Positions 6,626 to 32,690 of a stretch of 32,690 nt of DNA are shown piece after piece (position 1 is the stretch's first letter; every line of letters begins with the position of its first letter). The position numbers and the translations under genes were made by a program. The notes beneath the pieces were generated by a model that was not told where the DNA came from, searched no databases, and worked only from the letters and a program-made list of their open reading frames with translations. This stretch comes from Candidatus Latescibacterota bacterium (GTDB lineage: Bacteria > Latescibacterota > UBA2968), in contig DPVD01000020.1 in the NCBI GenBank assembly GCA_003526745.1, positions 1 through 32,690 on the forward strand, written 5' to 3'.

Positions 6626-7420
6626 CTATTCCTCGATGTCTCTTACCGCGTCTCCCCAGTCCTCCCACATATCCTCACCGGGCGGGAGCTCGGCCAGCTG
6701 ATTGATATTCTTGAAGGAGAAGTCCGTCAAAATAGCCTTGCGGATGTTGGTCGAATAATTGTGCGACCCCATGTGTGCCATTCTGTGATGCCAGATCACG
6801 ATGTCACCAGGCTCGCCGTGAGTCTGGAAAGACGTCGTTTCCCAACTGTTGTCGTATTCTTTACGAATCCGATCGTATTTGTCGGTCGATTCCTTCCGAT
6901 ATCGAGAATGTGAGGTGTAGAAGAGGCGTCGATGGCTTCCCGGCCAGACAGCGAACCCGCCCCCGTCAGGTTCGACCGTGTCGACATAGCACACGAATCC
7001 CAGAGTGAACTGACCATCGTCGATGTGCATGTAACGAGGCTGGGAATCCGTCTTGAGCCGAGGAAGGGTGCAGTAAATTCCTCGTACTCGATCACGCTGG
7101 GTGAAGCGATCCTTGCCCAGGAGCTGGTTCGCCGTGCTCTGAACGAACGGATGCCACGGCAGTCCTTGGACGATCCAATCCTCGGACCCAACTTTCCGAT
7201 ACATCCAGCGATAGTCCTTCTTGAAATTGTCGGGATCCTCGGACACTTCATTTGGCTTGATCGGCCCAATCCAGGAGTTCGGGTCGTCCTTCCTCAGGGA
7301 TGGCGGTGGATCGTCCCACAGTCGTTCGCGTGCCGTAGCGCAATAGTTCTGTTCAATGATCCCGCGCTTAACGAGAAAGCCGTCACGCTTGAACTGTGAA
7401 ACCTCGGCATCGCTCAGCAT
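6626..7420 (-). CDS. PhyH-family Fe(II)/2OG dioxygenase (tandem copy A)
   Basis: The N-terminus MLSDAEVSQFKRDGFLVKRGII is typical of PhyH. H-x-D is present in YMHIDDG. Also present are the VWPGSHR motif and the distal His/Asn/Arg block MAHMGSHNYSTNIRKA. The start ATG at 7420 overlaps the upstream paralog's stop by 7 nt. Confidence 0.85.
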   Translation of the reverse strand: MLSDAEVSQFKRDGFLVKRGIIEQNYCATARERLWDDPPPSLRKDDPNSWIGPIKPNEVSEDPDNFKKDYRWMYRKVGSEDWIVQGLPWHPFVQSTANQLLGKDRFTQRDRVRGIYCTLPRLKTDSQPRYMHIDDGQFTLGFVCYVDTVEPDGGGFAVWPGSHRRLFYTSHSRYRKESTDKYDRIRKEYDNSWETTSFQTHGEPGDIVIWHHRMAHMGSHNYSTNIRKAILTDFSFKNINQLAELPPGEDMWEDWGDAVRDIEE

Positions 7421-8232
7421 TCAGGACTCCAATTCCGTTCATCGCCAACGTCTCGCACCGCGTCAGCCCAGTCTTCCCACATATCTTCGCCCGGGGGGAG
7501 TTCGGCCAACTCATCGACGTTTTTCCACGAGAAGTCAGTCAGGACGGCTTTACGAATGTTCGAGGTATAGTTTGGGGATGCCATGTGAGCCATCCGTCGG
7601 TGCCAGAATACAATGTCCCCCGGATCTCCATAAGTTTGCACTGAACTTGTTTCCGAGGTGTTGTCGTATTCCTGACGGATGGGATCGAATTCATCGGTCA
7701 ATTCCCGCCGATAGCGGGAGCGAGAGACATACCAGAATTTTCGGTGGCTACCGGGCCAGAGAGCAAAGCCTCCCCCATCAGGTTCTACACGGTCGACGTA
7801 GCATACAACCCCAATCGTGGCCTGCCCGGCGTCGATATGCATGGTTCGAGGTGTTCGCGCAACATCGCCATAGGGTAACGTTCCGTAGATGCCTCGAACG
7901 CTTTCTGGCTGAGTGAAGCGACCCTTACCAAGGAGCTGGTTGACTACGGATTGGACGAAAGGGTGAAAGGAGAGCCCTTCTCGCATCCAGGGCTCGGTGC
8001 TGACTTTCCGATACTGCCAGCGGTATCCTTTCTTGAAGTTGTCCGGATCTTCCGATTCCTCTTCCGGCTTGATCGGACCGATCCAGGTTTCTGGGTCGTC
8101 TTTAGACAACGAAGGCGGAGGGTCGTCCCACAGACGATCACAGGCGGTCGCGCAGTACGATTTGTCAATAATGCCGCGTTTAACGAGATACCCGTCTCGT
8201 TTGAACTGAAGGATTTCGTCGTCTGTGAGCAT
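7414..8232 (-). CDS. PhyH-family Fe(II)/2OG dioxygenase (tandem copy B)
   Basis: It is collinear with copy A, with 61 of the first 80 residues identical by hand alignment. It has H-x-D in TMHIDAG, LWPGSHR, and MAHMASPNYTSNIRKA. Confidence 0.85.
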   Translation of the reverse strand: MLTDDEILQFKRDGYLVKRGIIDKSYCATACDRLWDDPPPSLSKDDPETWIGPIKPEEESEDPDNFKKGYRWQYRKVSTEPWMREGLSFHPFVQSVVNQLLGKGRFTQPESVRGIYGTLPYGDVARTPRTMHIDAGQATIGVVCYVDRVEPDGGGFALWPGSHRKFWYVSRSRYRRELTDEFDPIRQEYDNTSETSSVQTYGDPGDIVFWHRRMAHMASPNYTSNIRKAVLTDFSWKNVDELAELPPGEDMWEDWADAVRDVGDERNWSPEC

Positions 8233-8529
8233 AGCAACACCTTACTCTGATACTCTCAAAGAAATTTTGCCACTAGAGGGAAGGCCAGACACACAATATA
8301 GCGAACTCTCATAACAACTTCCGGTTCGAGTTGGGCGGACTCACCTGCTAAAAAACGTGGGTCCATCTGCAGATGGCGCGTGCAGTCAGGCCGGTTTTGC
8401 CTACTCAATCTCGCACTACTTTCGCATCTTGCACAAGACATTGTCGACTTGAACCCGAATATCACAGTCGAGGATTTCGCCACGTAATTCGCTGTGTCCT
8501 CCGTGGTTCCATTCCTTTTGAGGTTTTAC

Positions 8530-9543
8530 ATGCGGTCAGTCATTTGTGTTCACGAGAGGTTCGACGGGACCTGGCCATTCACGGCCGATCATTGGCATCA
8601 ACGATGGGAAGACGAAGGTGGATGTGAGCTGTATCGCACGGAGAATGTAAATCCGAGTGCCCCAGATTTCGTCGAAAATCCCGATACGGTTACCCGCCTC
8701 GTTCTGCTCGGTTTCCAAACGGGCAGGGTGGACCTGGATCCATTCACAGGTCTTGAAGAGTGCTATATCTCGGGCAATTACGGTGAAGACTCAGGTGATG
8801 GTGTGGCGTTGTTGGAGTCGAGGGGCGTATCCCTCATTCACCCGCGGGGTGATGTTCAGTGGGGTCAGACTGTGGCAGAATATGCACTTGGCCTGACGAT
8901 TGCCGCGTTGCGACGGATCCCCATGACATACAACGCGATGATCAAGGGACACGAGACGTGGAACTACTCAACGAAACCCGGAAAGCCCGGGCAGCGTGGT
9001 GCTCAGTTCGGTGATGACACTGACTATGTGAGCGGGACTATCCAAGGGAAACGGGTGCGTGTGATCGGTGTTGGGAATATTGGTGGACGATATGCCAAGT
9101 GGTGTCAGATGATGGGAGCCGACGTTGCGGTCTGGGATCCTTTCGCACCCGATGCGGCGTTTGACTTGGCCGGAGTTCGACGGTGTTGGCACCAAGATGA
9201 AATTGTCAAAGATGCGGATATCTTCGTGCCTATGGTTCCGCTTACCGAGAGCACGCGAGGTCTGGTAACGGCGGAACACATCAACGCGATTCCATGCAAG
9301 AGTCTGGTTTTGACGGTGACGCGCGCAAGGATCTGCGATACGGAAGCGCTCTACAAACGTGTGTTGAACGATGAGCTGTTCTTGGCGGCGGATGTGTTTG
9401 ACGAGGAACCTGTACCACTCGATTCAGAACTTCTGGGTCGCCACAACGTTGTGCACACGCCGCACAACGCTGGTCGTACGATCGACGCGAATAAGGCGAG
9501 AGCTGATGATGGGATTGCGAGGTTTCGGATAAGGGAGGTCTAG
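8530..9543 (+). CDS. D-isomer-specific 2-hydroxyacid dehydrogenase family, NAD-binding
   Basis: The Rossmann motif VRVIGVGNIGGRYAKW is followed by VAVWDP. Catalytic-type blocks are VTRARICD, DVFDEEP and HTPHNAGRT. The ORF track starts at GTG 8494. I prefer the ATG at 8530, which has GAGG 6 nt upstream. Confidence 0.8.
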   Translation: MRSVICVHERFDGTWPFTADHWHQRWEDEGGCELYRTENVNPSAPDFVENPDTVTRLVLLGFQTGRVDLDPFTGLEECYISGNYGEDSGDGVALLESRGVSLIHPRGDVQWGQTVAEYALGLTIAALRRIPMTYNAMIKGHETWNYSTKPGKPGQRGAQFGDDTDYVSGTIQGKRVRVIGVGNIGGRYAKWCQMMGADVAVWDPFAPDAAFDLAGVRRCWHQDEIVKDADIFVPMVPLTESTRGLVTAEHINAIPCKSLVLTVTRARICDTEALYKRVLNDELFLAADVFDEEPVPLDSELLGRHNVVHTPHNAGRTIDANKARADDGIARFRIREV

Positions 9544-9821: not shown

Positions 9822-10553
9822 CTAAGGAATGTGGTCGTATCTCCGTTCCGGATCGTAAATGTGCAGGTCACGATCGGGCATGCGATACCCGAGCAGCCGG
9901 AGCCGCTGGTCGCTCGCCCCCTCCAGGCACTCCGGTGGCAGCGTCTGGTCCGATTCGTACCGTTTCAGCCACCAGTGTCCGTAGTACATATAGATCCCAC
10001 GCCTCAACCGATGCGACTCGTTCCGGCCTCCAGTATGCCAGACCGCGCTGTTGACGAATACAGCATCTCCTGGCTGCGCGTGAACGGCAACTTCCCCCTC
10101 CAAAGGTTCGTTCTTCTTCTCTTGTGGCGGGAGATCTGGGCCTCGATGGGATCCGGGGACAACCCGGGTGAGTCCGCTGCTCTCGTCCATCATGTCGAGA
10201 TAAACAATGGTGTTGATGGACAGCGGGCGATCACCGGGGAAGCTGAAGTCGCGGTGCCAGGACCGATTCGGAAATGTGGACCCTGGGCTCTGGCGCAAGA
10301 AGTCGTATTGGAGCAATTGGGTCTGGCGTCCGAAGATGGCTGCGTGGCGTTCAAGGATTGGCGGATACTCGATCAGGTCGATGAACGTCTTGTGTCGGAG
10401 AAGGACGTGCTGGTTGCACTTACCCGGTGTCTCTGCTGCCCAGATCTCCTCGAATTCGTTCTGGATCTTTCGGAGTAGGTTCACTCCCAGCACGTTGGGG
10501 ACGTGCAGGTAGCCGTTCTCCAGAAAGAAGTGTAGCTCTTCAGCCGATCTCAT
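9822..10553 (-). CDS. PhyH-family Fe(II)/2OG dioxygenase
   Basis: FLENGYLHVPNVL N-terminus, H-x-D in SWHRDFSF, VVPGSHRG, and the distal block AVWHTGGRNESHRLRRG. Confidence 0.85.
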   Translation of the reverse strand: MRSAEELHFFLENGYLHVPNVLGVNLLRKIQNEFEEIWAAETPGKCNQHVLLRHKTFIDLIEYPPILERHAAIFGRQTQLLQYDFLRQSPGSTFPNRSWHRDFSFPGDRPLSINTIVYLDMMDESSGLTRVVPGSHRGPDLPPQEKKNEPLEGEVAVHAQPGDAVFVNSAVWHTGGRNESHRLRRGIYMYYGHWWLKRYESDQTLPPECLEGASDQRLRLLGYRMPDRDLHIYDPERRYDHIP

Positions 10554-10586
10554 CGATTCTCGAAAGCCTTCAATCGGTCGTATGGT

Positions 10587-11828
10587 CTAGCGCGAGAAAT
10601 GCATGCTTGCGACGCGGACGTGTGCGTTGGCGTCCTTGAGTGATGCACGATTTTGCTCGAACTGTTGCCAGCCGAAGTTGTTCCTTTCCTGCGCGGCTTG
10701 AGCGCGATCCAGGACCGGCTCCTGCAACGTGTCCCGCTCGTCCGGACAGACGTGACGGAACAGGGGCCGGGCGTCCGGTGGAAGCGCTTTGTATTCCTCG
10801 TGGCTGATCGGCCGGCACACCGTGTTCGTGTTTACACCGTCGCCCGGTGCGAAGTCGTCTACGGACAACCACCAGGGACACCATCGATTGACGACAGCGA
10901 CACGATCGCGTCCACTCGGGTTATGCATGGCGGAAGCGTGCCAGCACCGAGAGTCTTGCATGTAAACCGAACCGGCTGGAGCGGATACTTGCATGTCGCC
11001 TGGGATGGGCGCGCTGACGACCATGTCGTCGTTCGGGCCGCGGGGATTCCGTTCGTCCTTGTGTGAGCCTGGAACGATCCAGGTGCCCCCGGAGTTTTCG
11101 TCGACGTCGGTCAGATACCAGATCATGACAATGCACATGGTCAGGTCCGGGAATGGCTGACGGATACACCCCGCATTGGCGTATTGATCGTTTCCTCCGT
11201 AGGCGGACAAGTCGTGCGGCCAATCCGTATGCCATTCTCGCGTTTCGGGGTCGCCGCGATGTTTGCTAACAGGGCCACCATGTTTGCCGTCGACGGGCAA
11301 GTGGCGCGAATGGAGTTGCGCGATCCGAACGTGATCGTCCAATACGTGGCGTGCGACTGCGGTGACTGCTGGATGCGCAAGATGCTGGGCGTATTTGGGC
11401 ATCCAGACGATGTCATTGGGTGGCTTTGGCGGACATCCTCGCTTCCGCACCTGCCTGAGTTCGACGGCATCTGGACCGGTTTCGTTCAAAAGGTCCTCTG
11501 GACTGCTTCCCTTTTCAAGGCGCTGACGGATGCGGTCGATGTTCCGACTGACCCGCTTGCCGACTTCCACCGCTTCTTCACGGATTGAATCGACTTCCTC
11601 TGGTGGAATGACATTGTCGATAACGCAGAAACCGTTCCTGTCTACCGAGTCCGCACATCCAGCTACAACCTCGTCGATCGGAGACGACGCACTGAACGCG
11701 TATGCCCGCGATCGCGCCAACTCAGTGCCGTATGCCTCCGGATCAATGACTTTGGCCAGTTGATCCCGCGTTTCCTGTAACTCATGACTCAGTCGAGCTT
11801 CCCGAGTTTTGAGTTCAGAAACATGCAT
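10587..11828 (-). CDS. Enlarged PhyH-family dioxygenase with about 60-aa charged N-terminal extension
   Basis: The PhyH core begins near RNGFCVIDNVIPPEEV. It has H-x-D in EWHTDWPHD, IVPGSHKD, and the distal block RCWHASAMHNPSGRDRVA. The protein is 413 aa against 243-291 aa for its neighbours. The N-terminus MHVSELKTREARLSHELQETRDQLAKV looks helical and heptad-like. Confidence 0.8.
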   Translation of the reverse strand: MHVSELKTREARLSHELQETRDQLAKVIDPEAYGTELARSRAYAFSASSPIDEVVAGCADSVDRNGFCVIDNVIPPEEVDSIREEAVEVGKRVSRNIDRIRQRLEKGSSPEDLLNETGPDAVELRQVRKRGCPPKPPNDIVWMPKYAQHLAHPAVTAVARHVLDDHVRIAQLHSRHLPVDGKHGGPVSKHRGDPETREWHTDWPHDLSAYGGNDQYANAGCIRQPFPDLTMCIVMIWYLTDVDENSGGTWIVPGSHKDERNPRGPNDDMVVSAPIPGDMQVSAPAGSVYMQDSRCWHASAMHNPSGRDRVAVVNRWCPWWLSVDDFAPGDGVNTNTVCRPISHEEYKALPPDARPLFRHVCPDERDTLQEPVLDRAQAAQERNNFGWQQFEQNRASLKDANAHVRVASMHFSR

Positions 11829-11929
11829 TCTGTGCTCCTTTCCTTACAATTCGACCCTGATGTCATGGTGTAGCAACGGTTTCCTCTGGGAAGATTCTGG
11901 GATACCGCTGGCCTGTCGATAGAGGGTCG

Positions 11930-12964
11930 CTAGGCGGGGACGGGGACAGTTTCACCCAGCAAGGATTCATGTTTCAGCTCAGACCAGAAATCTGCTGGAA
12001 TGTGGTGCTCGAAGTAGGAGACGTTCGTCTGGATTTCTTCGACAGATCGGGCGCCGGGGATGATGGTTGCGATGGCCGGGTGTCCAAAAGGAAACTGAAG
12101 GGCTGCCGCCTGAAGCGGAACGTTGTGACGGTCACAGATCGATTCGATTCCGCGAACACGTTCCAAAACATCTTCGGGTGCATCGCCGTAGTTGTACTTG
12201 GCGCCTTCGATCGCGCCTGTGGCTAGGATCCCCGAATTGTAAGGTCCGCCTACAATGATGCGGACGTCCCGTTCGAGGCACAGGGGCAGAAAACTTTCGA
12301 GCGGCTCTTGTTCGAGAAGCGTGTAGCGACCTGCCAGAAGGAAGCAGTCGAAATCGCCCGCCTTGGCGAACTCAGCGAGCATCTGCCATTGGTTCATCCC
12401 GAGTCCTACGGCTTTGATCACGCCTTGGTTGCGGAGGTCGTCCAGAACCGGGTAGACGTTATTCATGACTTCGTCGAAGTGGCTAACCGCGAAAGGATCT
12501 GATCCGGGGTCCCACAACGTTGCGCCCTCGTCGGGATCGTGGATGAGGATGATCTCGACATGATCTGTCTGGAGACGTTCCAGGCTTTCGTCGATCGAAC
12601 GCTTGGCTGCGTCGGCCGTGAAGTCGAAAATGGCGTCGAGGTTCGGGATGTCGACGAACGGCGCATTGTGCGGCTCAGTCGATGTTTTTTCAACAAGCGT
12701 GTAGCCGACTTTGGTTGAAATGACGAAATCATTTCGGTCGTAGTTCGAGAGAGCGATCCCCAGTCGGGTTTCGCTGACGCCGAACCCGTACAAAGGTGCA
12801 GTGTCCAGGTATCCGATTCCGGCGGACTGAGTCGCGCCTAGTGTGTCGATGGCGTTCTGGTCGGACATGGACTGATACAAGTTCCCAAAGCCTGTACCGC
12901 CCAGTCCCATCTGCGTGACTTCGAGTTCGTGATTCCCAACGCGCTGCTTCTGACCCGATTTCAT
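11930..12964 (-). CDS. Aldo/keto reductase (D-threo-aldose / L-fucose 1-dehydrogenase-like)
   Basis: LGLGGTGFGNLY, with AKR tetrad context YLDTAPLYG (Asp/Tyr), ISTKVG (Lys) and ILIHDP (His). 344 aa. Confidence 0.85.
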   Translation of the reverse strand: MKSGQKQRVGNHELEVTQMGLGGTGFGNLYQSMSDQNAIDTLGATQSAGIGYLDTAPLYGFGVSETRLGIALSNYDRNDFVISTKVGYTLVEKTSTEPHNAPFVDIPNLDAIFDFTADAAKRSIDESLERLQTDHVEIILIHDPDEGATLWDPGSDPFAVSHFDEVMNNVYPVLDDLRNQGVIKAVGLGMNQWQMLAEFAKAGDFDCFLLAGRYTLLEQEPLESFLPLCLERDVRIIVGGPYNSGILATGAIEGAKYNYGDAPEDVLERVRGIESICDRHNVPLQAAALQFPFGHPAIATIIPGARSVEEIQTNVSYFEHHIPADFWSELKHESLLGETVPVPA

Positions 12965-13007
12965 CTCGGTATCCTTTATTGTGTCGGTGGCCGGCTATCT
13001 CGAGTAG

Positions 13008-13883
13008 TCAATCGTTTGCGACAGGCCACGGATCCTTTGGAACGGTCTTGAGCGAGTAATTCTCCCAGTAGTAATGATACGCATCGGATTCCCACCCCTC
13101 GTAGACGTCTTCCCACGAAAGGCGTCCCTGGTGAGGGCCCAACACCTTATCCATGATTGGGTCGGACGCGCGCTGATACCGAAAATCTACGGATAGGCGG
13201 ATGCGATTCCCGGATCGGTTAGGTATCCCTTGGTGAATAGTGTGGCTGTGGAAGAATAGTACGTCTCCTATCCGGAAGGGGCTTGTTACCCATTGACCGT
13301 CGGCGCCTGAAACATCCGTTTTAAGACTGCCCGCACCTAGTGAGCGCGTGACGGGCAGGATCCCTTGCCTATGAGAGCCTGCCAGGACCGTTAGCCCCCC
13401 CATCTCTGACGGGCAGTCGCCCAGCGGTATCCAGGCAGTCCACACGTCAGGGGTGCCTTGGATATGAATGTAATCTTGGTGCGGTGGCGTGGTGTGCTCG
13501 AAAGCGTTCGGGAAGATGACCCGCGCGATGTTGCTCGGTTGGAGAAATGTGTCCTGCCCCAAGATGCTTTCGCTGACCTGGATCAGGCCCGGTTCGTGGG
13601 CAAGGGTGTGGAAGGATTCCAGGCACTGGATGCGGTCGTAGATAGGGGTGAACTCCGGCGAGCCGGCGATCCTCGCAGGATGAGACGAAATCGCTTCGAT
13701 CGGGTCCGTTCCCGCATCGATCCAGCCGGCTTGCTCAAGAATTCTGACGATATCTCGTCTCGCCCTTAGAATTAATTCTTGATCAACAAGCGAGCGAAAG
13801 AACAAGTATCCATCCTGTTCAGCCTTCTCACGGAGCGACGGAACTGCGTCAGGAGGGGGCGCCGATTCGTGGAACGATGTCAT
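13008..13883 (-). CDS. PhyH-family Fe(II)/2OG dioxygenase
   Basis: QDGYLFFRSLV N-terminus, H-x-D in PPHQDYIH, VLAGSHRQG, and the distal block HTIHQGIPNRSGNRIRLS. The start overlaps the upstream gene's stop as ATGA (13880-13883). Confidence 0.85.
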   Translation of the reverse strand: MTSFHESAPPPDAVPSLREKAEQDGYLFFRSLVDQELILRARRDIVRILEQAGWIDAGTDPIEAISSHPARIAGSPEFTPIYDRIQCLESFHTLAHEPGLIQVSESILGQDTFLQPSNIARVIFPNAFEHTTPPHQDYIHIQGTPDVWTAWIPLGDCPSEMGGLTVLAGSHRQGILPVTRSLGAGSLKTDVSGADGQWVTSPFRIGDVLFFHSHTIHQGIPNRSGNRIRLSVDFRYQRASDPIMDKVLGPHQGRLSWEDVYEGWESDAYHYYWENYSLKTVPKDPWPVAND

Positions 13884-14692
13884 GGCATTGTCCCTGTTGT
13901 TGAGTAGATCAGCGGGAGGTGTGTATCGTCCTCGAGTAGATCGCCTTCATCGAGTCGTTCGAAGACTTCATCTGGAAGCGCGCTTTTCTTGCCGTTGAAC
14001 ACAGCGTCTTCGGGCATATAGAGCATAGCGAAGGCTCTGCGCGGCTTTGTGGTCATGTTTGGCCCCGCTGCGTGTGCGGCAAGACCACTGATGAAAATCC
14101 CGTCGCCTGCTTGCATCTCGGTCGCAGTCGGCTCGATGTCTTCCCATTCCGGGTATTCTCGGAACAGATCACCGATGCTGGCCTGCCTTAGGTTTCCCCC
14201 CAATTCAAAGTGGCTCTGCTTGTGTGTGCCAGCCAAGAGGTAGAGACATCCGTTCTGTAGTGTCGCATTGTCTAGTGCGACCCACAGCATGATTGCCTTG
14301 TTCGAGTAGAAGGGATCGTAGGGGTTGTCGACGTGGAGGTTGGTCGGGTTGGCCCAAGGCTGCTTGATGAGGGCGTGATCGTGGTAGAGCCGCACGCCGA
14401 TCGAGCCAGAGAGGCTGGCAGCGAGCTTGCCGAGCCGGGCATCACGGACGAGGGATTCGACCTCCGAGTCGGTCTTCCAGAGGTTGACGCACTGAGTGAA
14501 GACGTTCCTGTAGTAGGTCTGTTCGGCCGTGGGTGATTCTGAAGGCGACCGGCGGGTCTGGAAACGCGCTACTGCTTGGTCAATCACTCCACGCCAATGC
14601 TCGAGCTCGGAGGGCTGCAGCAGCCCTTCTACGACGAGGAATCCGTCCTCTTGATAGGAGGCGATCTGCGAATCTGTAACGTGGTCGATCAT
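13880..14692 (-). CDS. PhyH-family Fe(II)/2OG dioxygenase
   Basis: YQEDGFLVVEGLL N-terminus, H-x-D in NLHVDNPY, LLAGTHKQ, and the distal block LAAHAAGPNMTTKPRRA. Confidence 0.85.
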   Translation of the reverse strand: MIDHVTDSQIASYQEDGFLVVEGLLQPSELEHWRGVIDQAVARFQTRRSPSESPTAEQTYYRNVFTQCVNLWKTDSEVESLVRDARLGKLAASLSGSIGVRLYHDHALIKQPWANPTNLHVDNPYDPFYSNKAIMLWVALDNATLQNGCLYLLAGTHKQSHFELGGNLRQASIGDLFREYPEWEDIEPTATEMQAGDGIFISGLAAHAAGPNMTTKPRRAFAMLYMPEDAVFNGKKSALPDEVFERLDEGDLLEDDTHLPLIYSTTGTMP

Positions 14693-17637: not shown

Positions 17638-17644
17638 GCGTGAT

Positions 17645-20168: not shown

Positions 20169-20193
20169 ACAGACGACTACCAAAGAGGGTTAT

Positions 20194-22489: not shown

Positions 22490-22813
22490 ATGATTCGCAA
22501 AGCCTTTGTGATGCGGGTGAACCCTGATCAACACGAAGAGTACGAACGTCGGCACAACCCTATATGGCCTGAGCTGGAAGAGACAATTAAGGCGCACGGC
22601 GTGACGAGCTATTCGATCTACCTCGATGCGGAGACGAACCAGCTGTTCGCTTACGCCGAGATCGAGGACGAGGAGCAGTGGGTAAGCATCTCGCAGGAAG
22701 AGGTGTGCCAGAAGTGGTGGGCGCATATGCGGGAGATCATGCCTTCGAACCCGGACAACAGTCCCGTTTCGAAGGAACTCCGTGAAGTCTTCCATATTGA
22801 GACTTCGTCGTAG
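22490..22813 (+). CDS. rhaM: L-rhamnose mutarotase
   Basis: [37 protein letters not shown]...[27 protein letters not shown] is near-collinear with E. coli RhaM/YiiL ([30 protein letters not shown]...) as I recall it. 107 aa. Confidence 0.93.
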
Positions 22814-23976: not shown

Positions 23977-24135
23977 ATCGTCAAACCGTTGGGATCACCT
24001 GCCCCGGCCTTTGCTAGCCCTAGGGCGCGGCTGGATGAACCCGGATGGGCATAGATGACAAACGAGTAGCGGTCGATGATTTCGCGTTGCTTAAATATTA
24101 TGTTCATGCGCAGTCCATCTTGGGTTCAGCTGCCT

Positions 24136-25107: not shown

Positions 25108-25381
25108 AGACTTGCTCCGAGAAGGCCCACAATGCGCGCTCCTTCTTCAAGGTTGCTTCGGATTAGGAAGAAAGCAGGGCACACGGGTTTAATTCAGATG
25201 ATGAATTCTAGGAAAACGATCGAGATTCAGAATACGAAAAGACTTAACCGATCGTAAGCGAAACCGAAGGCGATTCGTCCCGTTTGAGTCGCGAGGCCGA
25301 TGAACTATATCCAGCTCTCTTGGCTGTCTTGGTCCGCCGCTGAGGTATTGAATCTGCACAGTTCAGGGTGGGTTCGCCATA

Positions 25382-25939
25382 TCACTCCATCTGCAGAATT
25401 CTGAAGTCTTCGAAACGAACCCAGTGATCTGATTCGTTCGGTCCATTGTAGCACTGGATGCTAACCTGATCTGTCGATGGTTCCGGGAGTTCGCCGGTCG
25501 CGGCGGTCTTGAATCCGTCGCCGCCTTCGGGACAAAACTGTGCTTCCCACGAGGTTGCTGTCACGATCAGACGCAGACGAACTGAGCTCGTAGACATCGG
25601 CTTCTTGCCAGGGATGATGTAGAGGTCTCCGTCGATCAGCTCCTTTACTTCCTTGAACACGGGTTCTCCATCAACATACAATGTGATACCGGCCTGCTCA
25701 TACTGATTAGTCGGAACCGCCTGGTTGTGGATGGTGACTTCTATGGCAAAGGTGCCGCTGCTTCGATCTGGGCCAGGTCGAAGCAGCGCGTTCTTGACCG
25801 TGTCCTTCACGCCGGGTTCGACAAGGACCTCGAGGCCTTTGTCGGTGATACGCCAGTGATCAGAGTCTTCGCGTAGCCAGGACCAGGATGCGTCGAGCTT
25901 AGGGGTTAAGGGGTCGTGGAAGAGTTGTGTTTCGGGCAT
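25382..25939 (-). CDS. Small concanavalin-A-like/LamG-fold protein (DUF1349 / GH43 C-terminal-domain-like), hypothetical
   Basis: WSWLREDSDHWRITDKGLEVLVEPG...NALLRPGPDRSSGTFAIEVTI...YEQAGITLYVDG resembles the stand-alone beta-sandwich domains appended to beta-xylosidases. The ATG at 25939 has GGAG 6 nt upstream. The track start is 25951. This is a weak assignment. Confidence 0.35.
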   Translation of the reverse strand: MPETQLFHDPLTPKLDASWSWLREDSDHWRITDKGLEVLVEPGVKDTVKNALLRPGPDRSSGTFAIEVTIHNQAVPTNQYEQAGITLYVDGEPVFKEVKELIDGDLYIIPGKKPMSTSSVRLRLIVTATSWEAQFCPEGGDGFKTAATGELPEPSTDQVSIQCYNGPNESDHWVRFEDFRILQME

Positions 25940-26011
25940 GAATGACTCCATAGGTTCAGGTGTTTTAGAAGCTGCGGAGATAAGATCGGCGGGGGTGGGA
26001 CGGCAAACGGT

Positions 26012-27217
26012 TCAGACCGGTGATTGCTTCGGACTTGGGGCAAAAGCTTGATCCTTGATCGGAAGGTGAACTAGGGATGCAGCGATACCCAGGATGATGG
26101 CGCCGATCCAGACGGGGTTGTAAGAACCTGTTGCGTCGTAGATGCGGCCCCCGAGCCAGACACCTAGAAAGCTGCCAATCTGGTGGCTGAAAAAAACGAT
26201 CCCATACAGAGATGACAGGTGTCTGGGGCCGAAAATCTGGGCGACCGTGCCGCTCGTTAGCGGGACCGTGGCCAGCCAGAGAAATCCGATCAGGCAGGCA
26301 AACACGAGTGCCGTGACGCTTGTGACCGGCACGATCAGAAAACAGCTGATGACGATCGCGCGTGTGAAGTAGAGAAAGCTGAGCAGATATTTTTTCCGAT
26401 ATCTGTCACCAAGACGGCCGAACAGATAGGACCCCCCCATGTTGAAGAGCCCGATGAGTGACAAGGCGGTTGCGGCAACCATTTTCGGCAAACCGTGGTC
26501 TGCGAGATACGATGGTAGGTGGGTCGCGATGAAAGCGACGTGGAATCCGCATACAAAGAAACCTGCGTTGAGTAGCAGGAATCCTGAGTGGCGACGAGCA
26601 TTGCCAATCACTCGACTGAGGTTTTCCTCGATCTCTTCTCCGACTGAAGAGGTATTGGCTTCAGATCGACTACTCGGATAGCCGAGGGCGAAAACTGCGA
26701 TGAAGCCAACGACGATCGCTGTGTAGAGGAGTGTGATCTCCCAGCCGAACTGAACGATCAGCCACTGAATCCCGGGGACTACGGCAAATGTCCCGAACGA
26801 TCCTGCCGCAGTGATGATGCCGAAGGCGGAACCGCGCCTCTCAGCGGGTACAACCTGGGCCACTGCTCCTAGCACGACGACGTAGGATGTCGCGCTCAGC
26901 GCGAGGCCGACCATTCCCCCGAATCCGACATACAGGCTCGTTGTTGTCGGGAAGAACGAAATGAAAGCGAAACCTGACGCGTAGAGCGCTGCGCCAGCCG
27001 CTACGACCCACCTTGGCCCGATCCTGTCAGCGAGTATGCCGGCAATAGGCAGACCGAAGAAAATGTTCTGTATCGCCATTGCCAGACTGAAGGTCTCCCG
27101 GCCCGTAGAGAGGGAGAGGCTCATCGGTTGGAGGAAGAGGCCGAGGGACTGGCGGGCGCCCATCGCGATGGCGACGGTGAATGCGCTGATTAGGATGATG
27201 ATGAAAGGTCGACGCAT
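26012..27217 (-). CDS. MFS transporter (12-TM type, OFA/YhjX-like)
   Basis: Hydrophobic helices run throughout (FIIILISAFTVAIAMG, FFGLPIAGILADRIGPR, VVAAGAALYASGFAFISF and others). The MFS loop motif GxLaDRxGrR is present twice (ADRIGPRW, GRLGDRYRKK). The ATG at 27217 (MRRPFIII) is preferred over the GTG at 27286. Confidence 0.85.
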   Translation of the reverse strand: MRRPFIIILISAFTVAIAMGARQSLGLFLQPMSLSLSTGRETFSLAMAIQNIFFGLPIAGILADRIGPRWVVAAGAALYASGFAFISFFPTTTSLYVGFGGMVGLALSATSYVVVLGAVAQVVPAERRGSAFGIITAAGSFGTFAVVPGIQWLIVQFGWEITLLYTAIVVGFIAVFALGYPSSRSEANTSSVGEEIEENLSRVIGNARRHSGFLLLNAGFFVCGFHVAFIATHLPSYLADHGLPKMVAATALSLIGLFNMGGSYLFGRLGDRYRKKYLLSFLYFTRAIVISCFLIVPVTSVTALVFACLIGFLWLATVPLTSGTVAQIFGPRHLSSLYGIVFFSHQIGSFLGVWLGGRIYDATGSYNPVWIGAIILGIAASLVHLPIKDQAFAPSPKQSPV

Positions 27218-27401: not shown

Positions 27402-28268
27402 CTACTCGTCCTCTCGACGGGGCGTGACGAGGGTCTTGCCGTCTTCTTCGATCAGTGGACGATTGTAGACATATGGAGGCTGCAAAACCGCTTGTTGTGC
27501 CTCGGTCAATTCCGACACCCAATTCGGCATCGATGCTTCGTAGACGCCTCCGGTGTAGTGAAGATATTTGGGTGTGTAGCGGTAGAAGAGTGAACGACGT
27601 TCGTGATCGGCAGTCCAAGGCAGGGTGCCGTGCGTCGTGCATTCGTTGAAGATCACGAGATCGCCGGCTTTCATTGGGACGTGGTAGACAATCTGCTGGT
27701 CGGTCTCCCACACAGCGATGTCTCTCGGGATCGGATAGTTTGCCTTGTGGCTTCCGGGGACGACACAGAGACCTCCATCACCGGGGTTCACGTCTGCGAG
27801 TTGATACTGGCAGTTGATCAGGCCGCAACGCATGCGGCCGTTCTGGTATGCGTAGAAACGTGAGCCGTTGAAATCGACCGCGCCGTGACCGTGAAGGTTC
27901 AGCCCTTCGGTGCCCTTCTTGGCTGTGTAGATGAACAGATTGTGATCCAGCTTCCAGCCGCGTCCAAGGAGTGTGTTCAGGTAGGGGATGATCTTTCTAT
28001 GTGCGAGGAGATCACGGAAAGGCTCGCACCAAGGTTGCTCCCACTCCAGCATTCCCTCGTAGAGGCCGCGCGGATGGTCACCGACCATCGCACCAGATGC
28101 CCCCCGGTTGTTGTCGTCCTTACGCTTGTCTGAGTTGGCATCAAGGGCTTCGTTGAGGGCTTTAACTTCCTCGCTGGAGAGCATACCTTTGACGACGATG
28201 AAGCCTTGGAGATCAAAGAGATATTTCTCTCGATCGGACATTGTGGAGAAGTTGACACGTTCGTTCAT
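27402..28268 (-). CDS. PhyH-like 2OG-oxygenase-fold protein lacking the HxD motif (paralog P2)
   Basis: MSDREKYLFDLQGFIVVKGMLSSEEVKALNE N-terminus, VVPGSHKANY, and the distal block ECTTHGTLPWTADHERRSLFYR. The expected first-ligand region reads LNLHGHGAVD (H-G-H / H-G-A), not H-x-D/E. The first ATG is at 28268. The Met at 28241 aligns with paralog P1. Confidence 0.65.
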   Translation of the reverse strand: MNERVNFSTMSDREKYLFDLQGFIVVKGMLSSEEVKALNEALDANSDKRKDDNNRGASGAMVGDHPRGLYEGMLEWEQPWCEPFRDLLAHRKIIPYLNTLLGRGWKLDHNLFIYTAKKGTEGLNLHGHGAVDFNGSRFYAYQNGRMRCGLINCQYQLADVNPGDGGLCVVPGSHKANYPIPRDIAVWETDQQIVYHVPMKAGDLVIFNECTTHGTLPWTADHERRSLFYRYTPKYLHYTGGVYEASMPNWVSELTEAQQAVLQPPYVYNRPLIEEDGKTLVTPRREDE

Positions 28269-28452: not shown

Positions 28453-29469
28453 ATGGCTAAGATGCTGAAGATGGCGTTGGTGGGGTGTGGGGCGATTTCG
28501 CGGTTTCATCTGGATGGGATCAAGGAGCAAGTGCCCAGCGTTCAGGTTACAGTGACGGTGGATCGGGATATGGCGCGGGCGTCTAAGCTGGCGGATGAGG
28601 TCGGGGCAATGGCATATTCGTCGCTGGAGGAGGCCTTAGAGAAAGGGGATTTCGATGCGGTTGATATCATGCTGCCGCACGATTTTCACGAAGAGGCGGC
28701 GACGGCCAGCTTTAACGCAGGAAAGCACGTGCTGCTCGAGAAGCCGATGGCTTCGACCCTCGAGGCGTGCGACCGGATTCTGAAGGCGGCGAGCGAGACG
28801 GATTTGGTGTTCATGGTGGCGGAAAACTCGCAGTATTGGCCGGAGATCGTAAGAACGAAGGAGGCAATCGACGAAGGGCTGATCGGTGAGGTGATTACGG
28901 CGAGGGCCGCATATGTGGCGGGTTTCGACGATTACTGGTTCCAAGAAGGTCACGATTGGAGATTTGATCAGGACAGGACGGGCGGCGGCGTTACGGTAGA
29001 CGGTGGGGCACACTGGATCAGGCCCCTTCGGATTTGGATGGGGGAGATCGAGGAGGTCGTGGGCATACTCGGATACCCGCTGAAGCAAATGGAAGGTGAA
29101 TCGCTGATGCGGTCGATCGTGCGCTTCCAGTCAGGGAAGTCGGCGATTCTGGATGCGATGATGATAGACACTGTATTTGCACCGGACAACTGGTGGCGTA
29201 TCACGGGGAGCAAGGGAGAGATCACGATCGGAGGTGGGTTCAAGGGCGGTGCCATCCTGTGGGACAGAGAGCATCCGGAGGGAACACCTCTGATGGAGCC
29301 GAAAGGATACGCGCAGTCGTTTGGGCCTGAGATTGCTGACTTTGCGGCTGCTGTGCTGGACGGGAAGACGCTGGAAGCTGGGCCGGAGGTGGCTCTGGGA
29401 GAGTTGCGGACGGCGTTCGCGATCTATAGGTCGGCGGAACATGGTCGGTGGGAGAAGGTTTGGGACTGA
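28453..29469 (+). CDS. Gfo/Idh/MocA-family NAD(P)-dependent oxidoreductase
   Basis: The Rossmann N-terminus is MLKMALVGCGAISRFHLDGI. The EKP motif is present (HVLLEKPMA). The C-terminal alpha/beta domain length is typical (338 aa). Confidence 0.88.
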   Translation: MAKMLKMALVGCGAISRFHLDGIKEQVPSVQVTVTVDRDMARASKLADEVGAMAYSSLEEALEKGDFDAVDIMLPHDFHEEAATASFNAGKHVLLEKPMASTLEACDRILKAASETDLVFMVAENSQYWPEIVRTKEAIDEGLIGEVITARAAYVAGFDDYWFQEGHDWRFDQDRTGGGVTVDGGAHWIRPLRIWMGEIEEVVGILGYPLKQMEGESLMRSIVRFQSGKSAILDAMMIDTVFAPDNWWRITGSKGEITIGGGFKGGAILWDREHPEGTPLMEPKGYAQSFGPEIADFAAAVLDGKTLEAGPEVALGELRTAFAIYRSAEHGRWEKVWD

Positions 29470-29538
29470 GCAGTGTCACGTGACAATTGACAAGTGTCGG
29501 ATGTCAAAAGGGCGAGCGGAAGAAGCCAGAGCTAGGAT

Positions 29539-29543
29539 GGAGG
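29539..29543 (+). promoter_or_regulatory. Shine-Dalgarno GGAGG for the PAL-like gene
   Basis: GGAGG lies 4 nt upstream of the ATG at 29548. Confidence 0.55.
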
Positions 29544-29547
29544 TAAT

Positions 29548-30495
29548 ATGGTAGAGCTTGGGTCAGGAGACTACGTCTACGAGACGACGGGGGAGGATTG
29601 GGGGAATCTGCAGCCGGATGCCACTTACAAGGAGGCGACGGCTGTCGCGGTCGATTCGGATGACAATGTGTTTGTGTTCAACCGTGGCACTCATCCGATG
29701 ATCGTGTTTAGCCCGGAGGGCGATATTCTTGATACGTGGGGGCACGGGGAGTTCTCAAACCCTCACGGTGTGACGATCGGGCCAGATGGGTCGATCTGGA
29801 CCGTTGACAACGGTGACCATACGGTAAAGAAGTTTACCGCCAAGGGTGAGAAGCTCGCGGAGATCCAGGCAGAGCATCCAGCGAAGGAAATGAGCGGGGA
29901 TCCTTTCTGCCGTCCTGCACATCTGGCCGTGTGTCCGAAAACGGGCAATCTGTTTGTCGCCGACGGATACTCGAATGCGCGGGTGCATAAGTATGATCCA
30001 AATGGTCGGCTGATTATGTCCTGGGGCGAATCCGGCACAGGCCCGGGTCAGTTCAACATCGTACATAACCTGATCATCCACGACGGGCTAGTGTATGTGG
30101 CCGACCGGGAGAATCAGCGGGTGCAGGTGTTCGACACGGAGGGCAAGTTCATCTCGCAGTGGAACGACATGTCCCGTGTGGCTGCGATCTGTATGGATCC
30201 TGCGGAAGACGATCCTCTGATCTACCTGGGCGAATACTTCTGCGGGATTGGGAGCAACGCGATGGGGACCAACCTAGGTCCACGCGTGTCGGTGATGAGT
30301 CGGACAGGTGATGTGCTCGCTCGTGTTGGAACCGAGTCTTACGGGGACGAGCCAGGACGGTTCTACTCACCTCACGGGATTGCAGTCGATTCGAAGGGTG
30401 ACATCTATGTGGCTGAGGTGGCGTGGAGCGACTATGGAAGCCAGATGGATCCGCCGAGAGAGCTTCGGTCGATGCAGAAGCTCGTGAAGCAGTAA
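29548..30495 (+). CDS. NHL-repeat six-bladed beta-propeller, peptidyl-alpha-hydroxyglycine alpha-amidating lyase (PAL)-like, leaderless
   Basis: NHL blades recur: NPHGVTIGPDGSIWTVDNGDHTVKKF, HLAVCPKTGNLFVADGYSNARVHKYDPNGRLIMSWG, QFNIVHNLIIHDGLVYVADRENQRVQVFD and SPHGIAVDSKGDIYVAEV. The ADGYxNxR and ADRENxR(I/V)Q blocks resemble the metazoan PAL domain as I recall it. Confidence 0.72.
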   Translation: MVELGSGDYVYETTGEDWGNLQPDATYKEATAVAVDSDDNVFVFNRGTHPMIVFSPEGDILDTWGHGEFSNPHGVTIGPDGSIWTVDNGDHTVKKFTAKGEKLAEIQAEHPAKEMSGDPFCRPAHLAVCPKTGNLFVADGYSNARVHKYDPNGRLIMSWGESGTGPGQFNIVHNLIIHDGLVYVADRENQRVQVFDTEGKFISQWNDMSRVAAICMDPAEDDPLIYLGEYFCGIGSNAMGTNLGPRVSVMSRTGDVLARVGTESYGDEPGRFYSPHGIAVDSKGDIYVAEVAWSDYGSQMDPPRELRSMQKLVKQ

Positions 30496-31357: not shown

Positions 31358-32308
31358 TCAGGACTCTTGGATTTCGGCGATTCCCAGACCTTTTTCGCCG
31401 GCGGTTGAGTAGACGAGATATTTGCGGTTGTCTTCGTTGTAGAGGTAGGGGTCGCGGACTTGGTGAACGGGCTCGTGGTCGGCGCCACCGGTTGAGGGTT
31501 CATTTGGTTCGTCAACGCCCTCGTAGTCGGTTTGGGTGCGAAGGATTTCGACGGGCGGCGTACCGAGCCATTCTTGGGCACTCAGATCGATTGTCGTGCG
31601 TTTGATTCGTTCGGGATGATCTCCGACGTTGCTGTAATAGAGGTGCAGGCTGCTGCCGTCCAGATCGATGGCCGAATGCCGCATGCGGTAGGTGAGGTCG
31701 TCGGGATTCTTCTTAGATGCCTGAATCTGATCTGGCGACGTGTATTTCTCACCATCGATCGGTAAGGTCTCGCCCTTAACGAAGGGCTTCCTGAGATTTT
31801 GCGACTTCCAGATTTGTCTGCCTCCACCACCACCGAATCCGTACCACACACCTTCCCACTCCCACACGCGCATGTAGGACGGGCCTAGACAGATACGGTC
31901 GCACGTGAACGCGAGCCCGTCGGCCGATTCTGCGTAGCAGGTGTTCTGACCAAGGTTTTCGTGCTTCGGTCCCGTGAATCCTGCGCCGTGGTAGAACATC
32001 CGGATCACTTTCGCCTCATCATCCACGTGGACGTCTGGAGATGCGATGTGTCTTTCGAAGTCTGTGTCTTCGATCGGGAGAACGCCGGGTGTGTAGACTT
32101 TGTAAGGCCCCATCAGCTCGTCAGCATAGGCCATCCGGATGAACTTGCCCTGATGGTGGGCGAAGTAGAGGTAGTATTGTCCGATCGGATTCACGATCCA
32201 GTCCGGCACGCGAATAAGGGACGGGCCGTTGATGTTCCCGAGGATCGCTTCGTCGGATCCTGGGTGGATGATTGGGTTATGAAGACTGCGGGTTACTGTG
32301 ACTGGCAT
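31358..32308 (-). CDS. Beta-propeller glycoside-hydrolase-like protein (GH43/GH117-like), leaderless
   Basis: NPIIHPG...NGPSLIRVPDW...YYLYFAHHQGKFIRMAYAD...ASPDVHVDD...CYAESADGLAF...VRDPYLYNEDNRKYLVYSTAGEKGLGIAEI shows blade-like repeats. The terminal RDPxxxxEDxxxYLxY block is seen in GH43-like enzymes. The family is uncertain. Confidence 0.4.
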   Translation of the reverse strand: MPVTVTRSLHNPIIHPGSDEAILGNINGPSLIRVPDWIVNPIGQYYLYFAHHQGKFIRMAYADELMGPYKVYTPGVLPIEDTDFERHIASPDVHVDDEAKVIRMFYHGAGFTGPKHENLGQNTCYAESADGLAFTCDRICLGPSYMRVWEWEGVWYGFGGGGGRQIWKSQNLRKPFVKGETLPIDGEKYTSPDQIQASKKNPDDLTYRMRHSAIDLDGSSLHLYYSNVGDHPERIKRTTIDLSAQEWLGTPPVEILRTQTDYEGVDEPNEPSTGGADHEPVHQVRDPYLYNEDNRKYLVYSTAGEKGLGIAEIQES

Positions 32309-32407
32309 AAAACCTCAAAGGCATGGAGAGCCGCGGAGGACGCAGAGTAAAACGGTGGGTCCTGCCGGTTGGTTATAGGTGAGTATTGGCATCGTGGTGT
32401 CGATCCA

Positions 32408-32690
32408 TCATTGCCGTAACTCGGATCGATCTTCTTCGACCATTTTTTTCCAGGAAGCCTCTTCGCGGGTCACGAACAGGTCGTCCTCGGCGAAGAAGCG
32501 GAGTAGGCGGCGGTCGTTGCGAGCGCGGGCCTCCTTCAAGATTTCGTGGATTGCTGGAAGATCGAAGGTGTCCCTGTGGGGGAGACCGATGCGACAGATA
32601 TAGTTGCTGAGGAAGTAGCGAATCTCGTTCGAGATGTTCCACGTTCCCGAGTGCAGAATTTCGTGGTGGGTGAAGACCATGTCACCAGCT
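32408..32690 (-). CDS. PhyH-family dioxygenase, C-terminal fragment (N-terminus beyond the right edge)
   Basis: The minus-strand frame stays open past the listed Met: ...AGDMVFTHHEILHSGTWNISNEIRYFL. This is the PhyH distal-His block (aGD.v.f...llH.s..N.s...R). The gene therefore continues outside the window. Confidence 0.7.
   Translation of the reverse strand, partial: AGDMVFTHHEILHSGTWNISNEIRYFLSNYICRIGLPHRDTFDLPAIHEILKEARARNDRRLLRFFAEDDLFVTREEASWKKMVEEDRSELRQ

Follow-up and report, generated by a model that had tools for sequence, protein, structure and literature searches.

The window analysed here is a complete contig of 32,690 bp (DPVD01000020.1), which was read together with its flanks as a stretch of ~53 kb. 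Nine of its 31 genes encode members of the PhyH family of Fe(II)- and 2-oxoglutarate (2OG)-dependent oxygenases. These genes, termed PhyH1 to PhyH9 (P1 to P9) in coordinate order along the window, together span 7,249 nt or 22% of it, and no further PhyH-like open reading frame (ORF) was found among the ORFs of the window. An earlier reading made from the sequence alone (hereafter the sequence-only reading) had located the nine ORFs with their strands and a share of 7.2 kb or 22%, all of which was borne out; it had also proposed that the locus is built around one undescribed oxidative pathway, a proposal that is weighed below. We are highly confident that PhyH-family oxygenase genes of diverse kinds are clustered in this island to a locally extreme degree.

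The nine PhyH-family genes

PhyH1 (6626..7420, minus strand, 264 aa) and PhyH2 (7414..8232, minus strand, 272 aa) are tandem duplicates with an HID...H centre and reach 42.8 and 50.1 bits, respectively, with PF05721, the PhyH model of Pfam (gathering score 22 bits). Four members, all on the minus strand, belong to a five-gene cassette: PhyH6 (13880..14692, 270 aa, 100.8 bits, HVD...H), PhyH5 (13008..13883, 291 aa, 70.5 bits, HQD...H), PhyH4 (10587..11828, 413 aa, 58.2 bits, HTD...H), which carries N- and C-terminal extensions, and PhyH3 (9822..10553, 243 aa, 71.4 bits, HRD...H), the last gene of the cassette. PhyH7 (21539..22360, plus strand, 273 aa, 26.2 bits) and PhyH8 (27402..28268, minus strand, 288 aa, 64.8 bits) have a predicted centre of the HygX type, the former with H-A-V instead of HxD and with E203-S-L-I-H, the latter with H126-G-H, E209-C-T-T-H213 and R225. 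PhyH9 (32408..32690, minus strand, HRD...H) runs into the contig end and is represented by the C-terminal 93 aa of a 282-aa protein. This fragment alone has no Pfam match, and the full gene, present on a Tara Oceans contig (L087:9053-9901), scores 63.7 bits. The search with PF05721 that the sequence-only reading had called for thus places eight ORFs of the window in the family at 26.2 to 100.8 bits and the ninth by its full-length version. The spacings given there, a 7-nt overlap of PhyH1 and PhyH2, a 33-nt gap between PhyH3 and PhyH4 and an ATGA overlap of PhyH5 and PhyH6, were likewise found to be right.

By sequence, the HxD...H triad is present in P1 to P6 and P9, and P7 and P8 exhibit E-x3-H instead. 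The arginine that binds the C5 carboxylate of 2OG, about ten residues past the distal histidine, is aligned in all nine proteins. Both motif blocks of the fold had been ascribed to every member, and two corrections apply: the distal block of P8 reads HGTLPW and does not contain the asparagine of His-x(2-4)-Asn, and the G-S-H block of P9 (RGSHL) is located beyond the window. A hidden PhyH domain in a 461-aa ORF upstream of PhyH7 was ruled out by an hhalign probability of 3%.

The nine proteins fall into at least five anciently separated subfamilies. P1 and P2 share 71% identity and form the sole recent pair, and the sole one above 60%. Their duplication can also be seen in the DNA (71% over 300 nt, window positions 6638-6937 and 7450-7749) and was all that scans of the window for tRNAs, Rfam families and repeats turned up. 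It is older than the split of two populations, as both copies are also present in the close relative GCA_002727195.1. P7 and P8 share 23% identity (E 4e-9), and P9 is related to PhyH3 (E 3e-12). The view that these genes are old copies was therefore correct for all but P1/P2, and the close relationship that had been assumed for P7 and P8 was not recovered.

Among solved structures, SnoK, EvdO2, MysH and PHYH are closest to P6, which matches human PHYH with an E value of 8e-12. PtlH (2RDN) is closest to P5 (E 1e-17), and P5 scores 72 bits with the NCBIfam model for 1-deoxypentalenic acid hydroxylase, the cut-off of which is 550. SptF, FtmOx1 and AsqJ are closest to P3 (E 1e-11 to 1e-5), and P4 and P9 are distant relatives of P3. 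No close solved relative exists for P1/P2, the best match of P2 being PtlH at E 0.007, and PHYH is the best structural match for none of the nine. The family of P4 is small, as a search of 1.84 billion proteins gave 747 representatives at E<=1e-3, and its extensions are considered real because the best full-length match (55% identity) spans residues 3-407. Orthologues of P6 with 50-71% identity were identified in Poribacteria, Caldilineaceae, Latescibacterota, Gemmatimonadota and Moanabacter. None of the nine proteins reaches any NCBIfam equivalog cut-off, in agreement with the earlier remark that bacterial PhyH paralogues almost all lack a known substrate. The functions of EctD, PhnY-type enzymes, halogenases (TIGR01762) and PtlH were considered and rejected, as the scores lie far under the respective equivalog cut-offs.

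Extent and density of the island

Two longer contigs, one of 117 kb in GCA_002714465.1 and one of 48 kb from Tara, contain near-identical DNA, and the same gene order recurs in no fewer than six metagenome assemblies that are independent of one another and in three metagenome-assembled genomes (MAGs) at NCBI. This recurrence shows that the locus is no assembly artefact or chimera. The run of PhyH genes continues into both flanks and no boundary was detected. The right 10-kb flank encodes PhyH10 (309 aa) and a 308-aa PhyH-fold protein, whose PF05721 score of 22.3 bits lies barely above the gathering score and which matches P7 at E 3e-47, next to ADH, MR_MLE (enolase-superfamily), glycoside hydrolase family 43 (GH43)-like and two DUF6785 genes. 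The left 10-kb flank contributes two further PhyH genes, for proteins of 389 and 270 aa, in addition to two short-chain dehydrogenases/reductases, a PIG-L deacetylase and an Ldh_2 dehydrogenase. Window and 10-kb flanks combined thus hold 13 PhyH-fold genes among ~47 genes in ~53 kb.

The local density in the window amounts to ~29% of genes (9/31). It was compared with a literature value and with loci from relatives, the part of the host's own genome that was covered being ~53 kb. If PhyH genes made up 2% of all genes, which is the level in Poribacteria (PMC3909097), the probability of finding at least nine among 31 genes would be 7e-9, and at 6.6% of genes it would be 1e-4. Two 21-kb loci of related lineages that were picked via a non-PhyH gene contain 1/15 and 0/19 PhyH genes. 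In 58 loci of 20.8 kb centred on P6 orthologues, the mean number of PhyH-like ORFs is 3.1 and the maximum is six; the densest 20.8 kb of the island hold seven to eight.

A HygX-type clade with a predicted relocated carboxylate

In HygX, an enzyme with a sugar substrate, the carboxylate iron ligand is relocated, resulting in the motif H-x-G...E-x3-H (PMC13374393). In such an E-x3-H site the carboxylate residue sits four residues before the distal histidine, as in ESLIH of P7 and ECTTH of P8, and neither protein has HxD/E anywhere. Five PhyH proteins of the extended locus exhibit E-x3-H: P7, P8, PhyH10 and the 308-aa protein of the right flank (L087:3638-4567 and 4617-5543) and the 270-aa protein of the left flank (L092:1-613), the last of which holds both LHSD and EALTH.

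HygX is the best sequence match in the PDB for both window proteins (phmmer E 5e-14 for P8 and 8.5e-5 for P7). For P8, the one protein modelled, it is also the best fold match in the PDB (AlphaFold2 model, pLDDT 75.5; Foldseek E 1e-15, TM score 0.6-0.69). In an alignment of P8 with 15 orthologues (60-73% identity), P7, PhyH10 and the 308-aa protein, E209, H213, R225 and the GSHK block are invariant, and H126 and G127 are also invariant within the P8 orthologues. The residue two positions past the first histidine is V in P7, H in P8 and S, H, Y, T, P or D in the family (D in P0274), and not Gly. The P8 family comprises 1,781 matches at E<=1e-5, which stem from Poribacteria, Chloroflexi, Latescibacteria, Gemmatimonadetes and Chthonomonadaceae. 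Judged by these conserved residues, a large environmental PhyH clade is predicted to carry the HygX-type E-x3-H site, an observation that is new with respect to the literature searched and incremental in nature.

Transcription units and a variable cassette

As deduced from gene spacing and strand, the PhyH genes are distributed over about six units on both strands. These are PhyH2-PhyH1; (fatty-acid desaturase)-PhyH6-PhyH5-AKR-PhyH4-PhyH3, in which AKR denotes an aldo/keto reductase; LLM-ceramidase-like-PhyH7-(rhaM), which starts with a luciferase-like oxidoreductase (LLM); PhyH8-MFS-DUF1349-like-UxuA-like-GH43, with a transporter of the major facilitator superfamily (MFS); a unit ending with PhyH9 and a 316-aa protein without assignment; and the units of the flanks. 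Spacing is tight in the five-gene cassette, where PhyH6 and PhyH5 overlap by 4 nt and AKR, PhyH4 and PhyH3 follow after 43, 101 and 33 nt, respectively.

Comparison with GCA_002727195.1 (locus L100 on a 617-kb contig), whose P2 falls into the same 90% cluster, revealed which parts of the island are stable. This relative keeps the sulfatases, the sulfotransferase, the UxuA-like gene, PhyH1, PhyH2 and the 2-hydroxyacid dehydrogenase, as well as the fatty-acid desaturase, MaoC, the CoA-transferase, the LLM, the ceramidase-like gene and a PhyH7-like gene; the CitE-like lyase is absent from its locus. In place of PhyH3-PhyH4-AKR-PhyH5-PhyH6 (window 9822-14692), a single MR_MLE gene is found (L100:6874-8037). 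The slot downstream of the gene for the desaturase-family enzyme is consequently variable, with five genes here and one in the relative. No mobile-element signatures, genes or repeats were detected at the junctions of the PhyH3-PhyH6 cassette. The island thus consists of exchangeable cassettes on a conserved catabolic backbone.

A separate observation concerns the region behind PhyH2-PhyH1. Directly after these two genes, the close relative (L101, L102: 12004-12579) harbours a 191-aa ORF with a Pfam match to WelO5 (Fe/2OG halogenase-like), which has no counterpart in the window.

Neighbouring genes

The left part of the backbone (70..6330, plus strand) encodes a DUF6807 protein, two sulfatases, a sulfotransferase of the PAPS (3'-phosphoadenosine 5'-phosphosulfate) type and a UxuA-like protein, and the arrangement DUF6807-sulfatase-sulfatase is also present in a further locus (L184). 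The sulfatases contain the formylglycine motif CSPYR and the variant CVAAR, and the catalytic fold begins right at their N-termini; no N-terminus of a PhyH protein or sulfatase in the window resembles a signal peptide. At window positions 794-5272, the two apparently cytoplasmic sulfatases adjoin the sulfotransferase (PF00685), so that enzymes for the removal and the addition of sulfate are encoded side by side, in an order that is kept in GCA_002727195.1. A protein of the D-2-hydroxyacid dehydrogenase family (8494..9543, plus strand, PF02826 112 bits) lies between PhyH1/2 and the cassette. The AKR inside the cassette (11930..12964, minus strand, PF00248 156 bits) belongs to a cluster whose members were named D-threo-aldose 1-dehydrogenase by JGI, and upstream of the cassette a membrane-bound di-iron enzyme of the fatty-acid-desaturase family is encoded (14863..16017, minus strand, PF00487 97 bits, 384 aa in the public call).

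A MaoC hydratase, a CitE/HpcH-type lyase and a family III CoA-transferase are encoded at 16262..18853 (plus strand) with gaps of -4 and 7 nt. The trio scores 192.9 bits with RipB/Ich (cut-off 340), 186.2 bits with RipC/Ccl (cut-off 375) and 215 bits with CitE, and the CoA-transferase reaches 250-268 bits with succinate-glutarate and mesaconate models, all scores being under the equivalog cut-offs. Judged by these family matches, the trio resembles an itaconate-type C5-dicarboxylate CoA module.

Further downstream, an LLM of the MsnO8 family (TIGR03558 429.9 bits) and a neutral-ceramidase-like protein (19143..21522, plus strand) precede PhyH7. The latter, the 461-aa protein encoded at 20137-21522, overlaps the LLM gene by 32 nt and ends 16 nt upstream of PhyH7. 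It has no Pfam or PDB match itself; the link to ceramidases comes from its homologues, in which PF04734 is present and which JGI names "neutral ceramidase". Elsewhere, these homologues are found among sulfatase, NagA/NagB-like, heparinase-like and GH123 genes, and because of the sulfatase and NagA/NagB-like genes an N-acyl amino sugar may be the substrate rather than ceramide. PhyH7 is followed by a protein of the L-rhamnose mutarotase family (22490..22813, plus strand, PF05336 110.9 bits). Downstream of PhyH8, GH43, a UxuA-like TIM-barrel protein, a DUF1349-like protein and an MFS transporter are encoded (23071..27217, minus strand), and divergently from it a GFO/IDH/MocA sugar dehydrogenase (GFO) and an NHL/SGL-type beta-propeller (28453..30495, plus strand). 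The GFO protein gives partial NCBIfam matches to inositol, levoglucosan, xylose and disaccharide-3 dehydrogenases, all under their cut-offs. The remaining genes code for a stand-alone class III nucleotide cyclase domain protein of 179 aa (30667-31206, PF00211 33 bits) and the conserved 316-aa protein (31358-32308), which is without any Pfam or PDB match.

Orthologues and their genomic context

The P6 orthologue with 71% identity has no other PhyH gene nearby and is located among three MR_MLE genes. In Poribacteria, the pattern is PhyH-PhyH-P6-DUF6785-MR_MLE, that is, runs of three PhyH genes with DUF6785 directly downstream of the P6 orthologue. Across 62 P6-centred loci, another PhyH gene was found in 57, MR_MLE in 45 and DUF6785 in 32.

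The P8 module, including GFO and NHL, is fully conserved in one locus with a P8 of 83% identity (L104), and GFO and the UxuA-like gene also stand beside P8 orthologues of ~62-65% identity in four others (L114, L124, L129 and L148). The best P4 orthologue (55% identity, L185:1-4388) lies between a predicted TonB-dependent receptor fragment and a sulfatase that matches the window sulfatase g03 at E 3e-43; a second one, P0499, sits on a 1.2-kb contig and offers no gene context. Sulfatases flank PhyH genes both here and in related loci. P4, P6 and P8 each have orthologues in other phyla and in differing neighbourhoods, most of which are of a sugar-acid or sulfatase kind. Since these contexts differ, synteny is kept for small modules and the backbone and not for the whole cluster, which answers in part the question of conserved gene order that had been raised by the sequence-only reading.

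Proteins of the DUF6785/DUF6784 type, 640-700 aa in length, were also noted to adjoin PhyH genes (L087:1-3577; L099:10883-12805; L067:10961-12889). We suspect that they are membrane proteins, and they may represent an associated transporter.

Interpretation of the island

Our favoured explanation, which we hold at slightly below an even chance, is that of a paralogue-rich catabolic island for the cytoplasmic oxidation of decorated, sugar-derived substrates. Each PhyH enzyme would operate in the cytoplasm, where it would use O2 and 2OG to form an Fe(IV)=O species and with it hydroxylate one unactivated C-H bond of a decorated, sugar-derived molecule taken up by the cell. Hydroxylation beside an ether or ester oxygen would yield an unstable hemiacetal, from which the substituent would be released, be it an O-methyl group (compare PHYHD1/FJS) or sulfate (compare AtsK). 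At other positions, the new hydroxyl group would offer a point of attack to the dehydrogenases, AKR, dehydratases and lyases encoded nearby, and the many PhyH paralogues would correspond to many substrates. AtsK is a Fe/2OG enzyme that cleaves sulfate esters oxidatively; EvdO2, SnoK and SnoN act on sugar moieties of glycosides; and P450s demethylate sugars oxidatively in algal-polysaccharide degraders.

The sugar-directed mechanism taken by itself is put forward tentatively, as rather less likely than not. It is suggested by the gene context, by the sugar chemistry of HygX, EvdO2, SnoK and SnoN and by the O-demethylation carried out by PHYHD1/FJS. The context comprises sulfatases, a sulfotransferase, GH43, a mutarotase, sugar and sugar-acid dehydrogenases and dehydratases, and transporters.

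Several findings weigh against this explanation. For none of the 13 PhyH proteins does an equivalog match near the cut-off give a substrate, and identity to the tested 2'-O-methyl-nucleoside demethylases is just 20-27%. Among enzymes of solved structure, those nearest to PhyH3 and PhyH5 have terpenoids or alkaloids, not sugars, as substrates, and the CoA-ester module, the desaturase-family enzyme and the ceramidase-like protein fit organic-acid or lipid substrates. Part of the co-occurrence is expected by chance, because sulfatase, GFO, MR_MLE and PhyH genes are all abundant in such genomes. Most of the P6-centred loci are poribacterial and therefore non-independent, and the operon structure is deduced from gene spacing.

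Among the alternatives, a passive paralogue hotspot fares best, though we regard it as unlikely. Under this scenario, tandem duplication and horizontal gain in a plastic region, within a genome that has undergone a large PhyH expansion, would have assembled the PhyH genes with no functional link to their neighbours. The tandem duplicate P1/P2 and the varying presence of the cassette between relatives are in line with it, and PhyH genes generally cluster, as illustrated by the 3.1 that are found on average in the 20.8 kb around a P6 orthologue and by the second PhyH gene in 57 of 62 loci. Horizontal transfer is suggested by orthologues shared across phyla at 60-70% identity. However, all but one pair are deeply diverged, so that local duplication fails to explain the density. 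Moreover, several PhyH genes overlap or sit 16-45 nt from non-PhyH genes such as those for the AKR and the ceramidase-like protein, which suggests co-transcription with these neighbours, and certain pairs (P8 with GFO/UxuA-like and P6 with MR_MLE/DUF6785) recur in distant genomes.

The sequence-only reading had viewed the locus as a unit built for one undescribed pathway, in which one scaffold would pass through the nine oxygenases step by step and selection would maintain the locus as a whole. Tight coupling within sub-blocks, as in PhyH6-PhyH5-AKR-PhyH4-PhyH3, the identical arrangement in several independent assemblies of the population and the poribacterial runs of three PhyH genes around P6 orthologues would agree with such a pathway. 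Yet the genes are organized in about six transcription units on both strands and run on into both flanks without a boundary, and the five-gene cassette is missing in GCA_002727195.1 while the backbone is kept. Furthermore, the 71%-identical P6 orthologue stands without another PhyH gene nearby, and orthologues of P4, P6 and P8 occur in unrelated neighbourhoods elsewhere. The proposal is consequently not supported in this form, and we consider a single dedicated pathway to be quite improbable.

Slightly less credit still is given to an oxidation of lipids or branched organic acids in the manner of phytanoyl-CoA hydroxylase. In this case, the ceramidase-like hydrolase, the enzyme of the desaturase family and the CoA module (transferase, hydratase and lyase) would provide the PhyH enzymes with acyl-CoAs, sphingoid compounds or isoprenoid acids to hydroxylate. 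The positions of the gene for the desaturase-family enzyme at the head of the cassette, of the ceramidase-like gene 16 nt upstream of PhyH7 and of the MaoC/CitE/CoA-transferase trio between the two would fit, as would the match of P6 to PHYH. However, no acyl-CoA synthetase, thiolase, acyl-CoA dehydrogenase or 2-hydroxyacyl-CoA lyase was found among the window genes, the CoA module resembles the C5-dicarboxylate (itaconate/mesaconate) type and not the fatty-acid type, the neighbours of the ceramidase-like homologues point to amino-sugar amides, and PHYH is not the best match of any of the nine proteins.

That the PhyH proteins are tailoring enzymes encoded in an unrecognized gene cluster for the biosynthesis of a glycoside, a glycolipid or a sulfated metabolite is very unlikely, since the PAPS-type sulfotransferase and a set of closest solved relatives drawn nearly entirely from natural-product enzymes (HygX, EvdO2, SnoK, PtlH, SptF, FtmOx1, MysH), which tells little of their role because the PDB is biased to such enzymes, are opposed by catabolic neighbours (sulfatases, GH43, mutarotase, dehydratases, lyases) and by window genes that include no core biosynthetic enzyme, glycosyltransferase, methyltransferase or carrier protein. 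The search for non-ribosomal peptide synthetase (NRPS), polyketide synthase (PKS), carrier-protein and ribosomally synthesized and post-translationally modified peptide (RiPP) domains in the other window genes was negative, in keeping with what the sequence-only reading had stated, and no core scaffold enzyme (NRPS, PKS, terpene synthase or RiPP precursor) was found in the 31 window and ~16 flank genes.

Should the enzymes of this catabolic island act on decorated sugars, they would constitute an oxidative route by which recalcitrant carbohydrates of marine origin are degraded; otherwise, the locus is no more than an ordinary catabolic region rich in paralogues. A broader and rather speculative proposal is that abundant bacteria of marine and sponge-associated habitats use PhyH enzymes, including those of the HygX-type clade, as a general toolkit that works without hydrolysis. 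It would strip or functionalize decorations that resist hydrolysis, for example O-methyl ethers, sulfate esters and deoxy positions, on marine glycans and in dissolved organic matter. If true, this proposal would explain the hundreds of poribacterial PhyH paralogues, and marine carbon turnover would gain an O2- and 2OG-dependent step. What makes the locus valuable is that it opens an old question about PhyH enzymes to experiment, rather than that it presents a new kind of system. The locus offers compact, testable units: the five-gene operon with four different PhyH genes and an AKR, the P8-MFS-UxuA-GH43 / GFO module and the P4 type beside a predicted TonB-dependent receptor and a sulfatase.

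Comparison with known systems

The HygX structures (PDB 4XC9, 4XCA, 4XCB and 4ZPI) share with P7 and P8 the E-x3-H motif and an N-terminal "FD.xG(F/W)" helix. Identity is ~21%, however, the position of the glycine in HygX is taken by a variable residue, and P8, unlike HygX, belongs to a large environmental family. No glycosyltransferase, aminocyclitol or sugar-nucleotide biosynthesis genes were found in the window, and an aminoglycoside or orthosomycin context as for HygX is thus not given.

The enzymes PHYHD1 and FJS are members of the PhyH family that demethylate the 2'-O-methyl ribose of nucleosides, and one active enzyme originates from Poribacteria (Stonkus et al., 2025; PMC12709175). Orthology to these demethylases was rejected at 20-27% identity (best E 7e-10, for P6), and PHYHD1 (2OPW) is a mid-rank match only, for P6 and P5. 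They are kept as a mechanistic precedent for the oxidative dealkylation of a sugar O-methyl ether.

In the 2-aminoethylphosphonate pathway, PhnY is a PhyH-family hydroxylase that is partnered by the HD-domain protein PhnZ, and a PhnY-type function is the one that was proposed for some poribacterial PhyH proteins (PMC3909097). The only PhnY-named model that matches is NF052437 (methylphosphonate hydroxylase), with a best score of 57.7 bits at a cut-off of 500, and the function was rejected, as was that of ectoine hydroxylase EctD (TIGR02408, best 27.9 bits, cut-off 336.5). The window contains no HD-domain gene, and hence no PhnZ partner, and no ect genes. The itaconate module Ict/Ich/Ccl (RipABC) is comparable to the window trio in that the same three enzyme families are encoded in one tight operon; it differs in that all three window proteins stay under the equivalog cut-offs.

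The closest parallel is found in Poribacteria, where PhyH is the most abundant Pfam family with >1.9% of genes, compared with <0.049% in all other genomes of IMG in 2013 (Kamke et al., 2014; PMC3909097). The 305 poribacterial PhyH sequences formed 193 clusters at 60% identity, most of them without an assignable function (PMC3909097), and poribacterial PhyH genes were shown to be transcribed in situ (PMC5087111). The sequence-only reading had pointed to Poribacteria with reference to this abundance, which is real; the organism itself, by contrast, is labelled Gemmatimonadetes or Latescibacteria. The population stems from pelagic Tara Oceans samples, and near-identical proteins are deposited under Gemmatimonadetes (MAGs tagged CME19_ and CME21_), Latescibacteria (a TPA MAG) and "bacterium" (GCA_022451785.1), so that the public phylum assignment of the lineage is inconsistent. 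None of these labels is Poribacteria; the phylum of the host is taken from them, the window being without a marker gene. Outside the population, the named proteins most similar to P6 and P8 come from Poribacteria, with 63-70% identity.

A search of the literature for PhyH expansions outside Poribacteria yielded nothing specific, and no later paper was found in it that answers the question of the role of the poribacterial PhyH complement raised in 2014 (PMC3909097). The module-level synteny described here is new as far as the searched literature goes, and is an incremental advance. As in Poribacteria, the paralogues of the island are highly diverse, mostly below 60% identity, and without equivalog assignment. 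In contrast to Poribacteria, the bacteria are pelagic and carry the labels Gemmatimonadetes or Latescibacteria, PhyH genes account locally for ~29% of genes versus ~2% genome-wide there, and the gene order around shared orthologues differs. The island is viewed as the same phenomenon as the PhyH expansion of Poribacteria in another lineage and another habitat, and the expansion probably extends to pelagic bacteria labelled Gemmatimonadetes or Latescibacteria.

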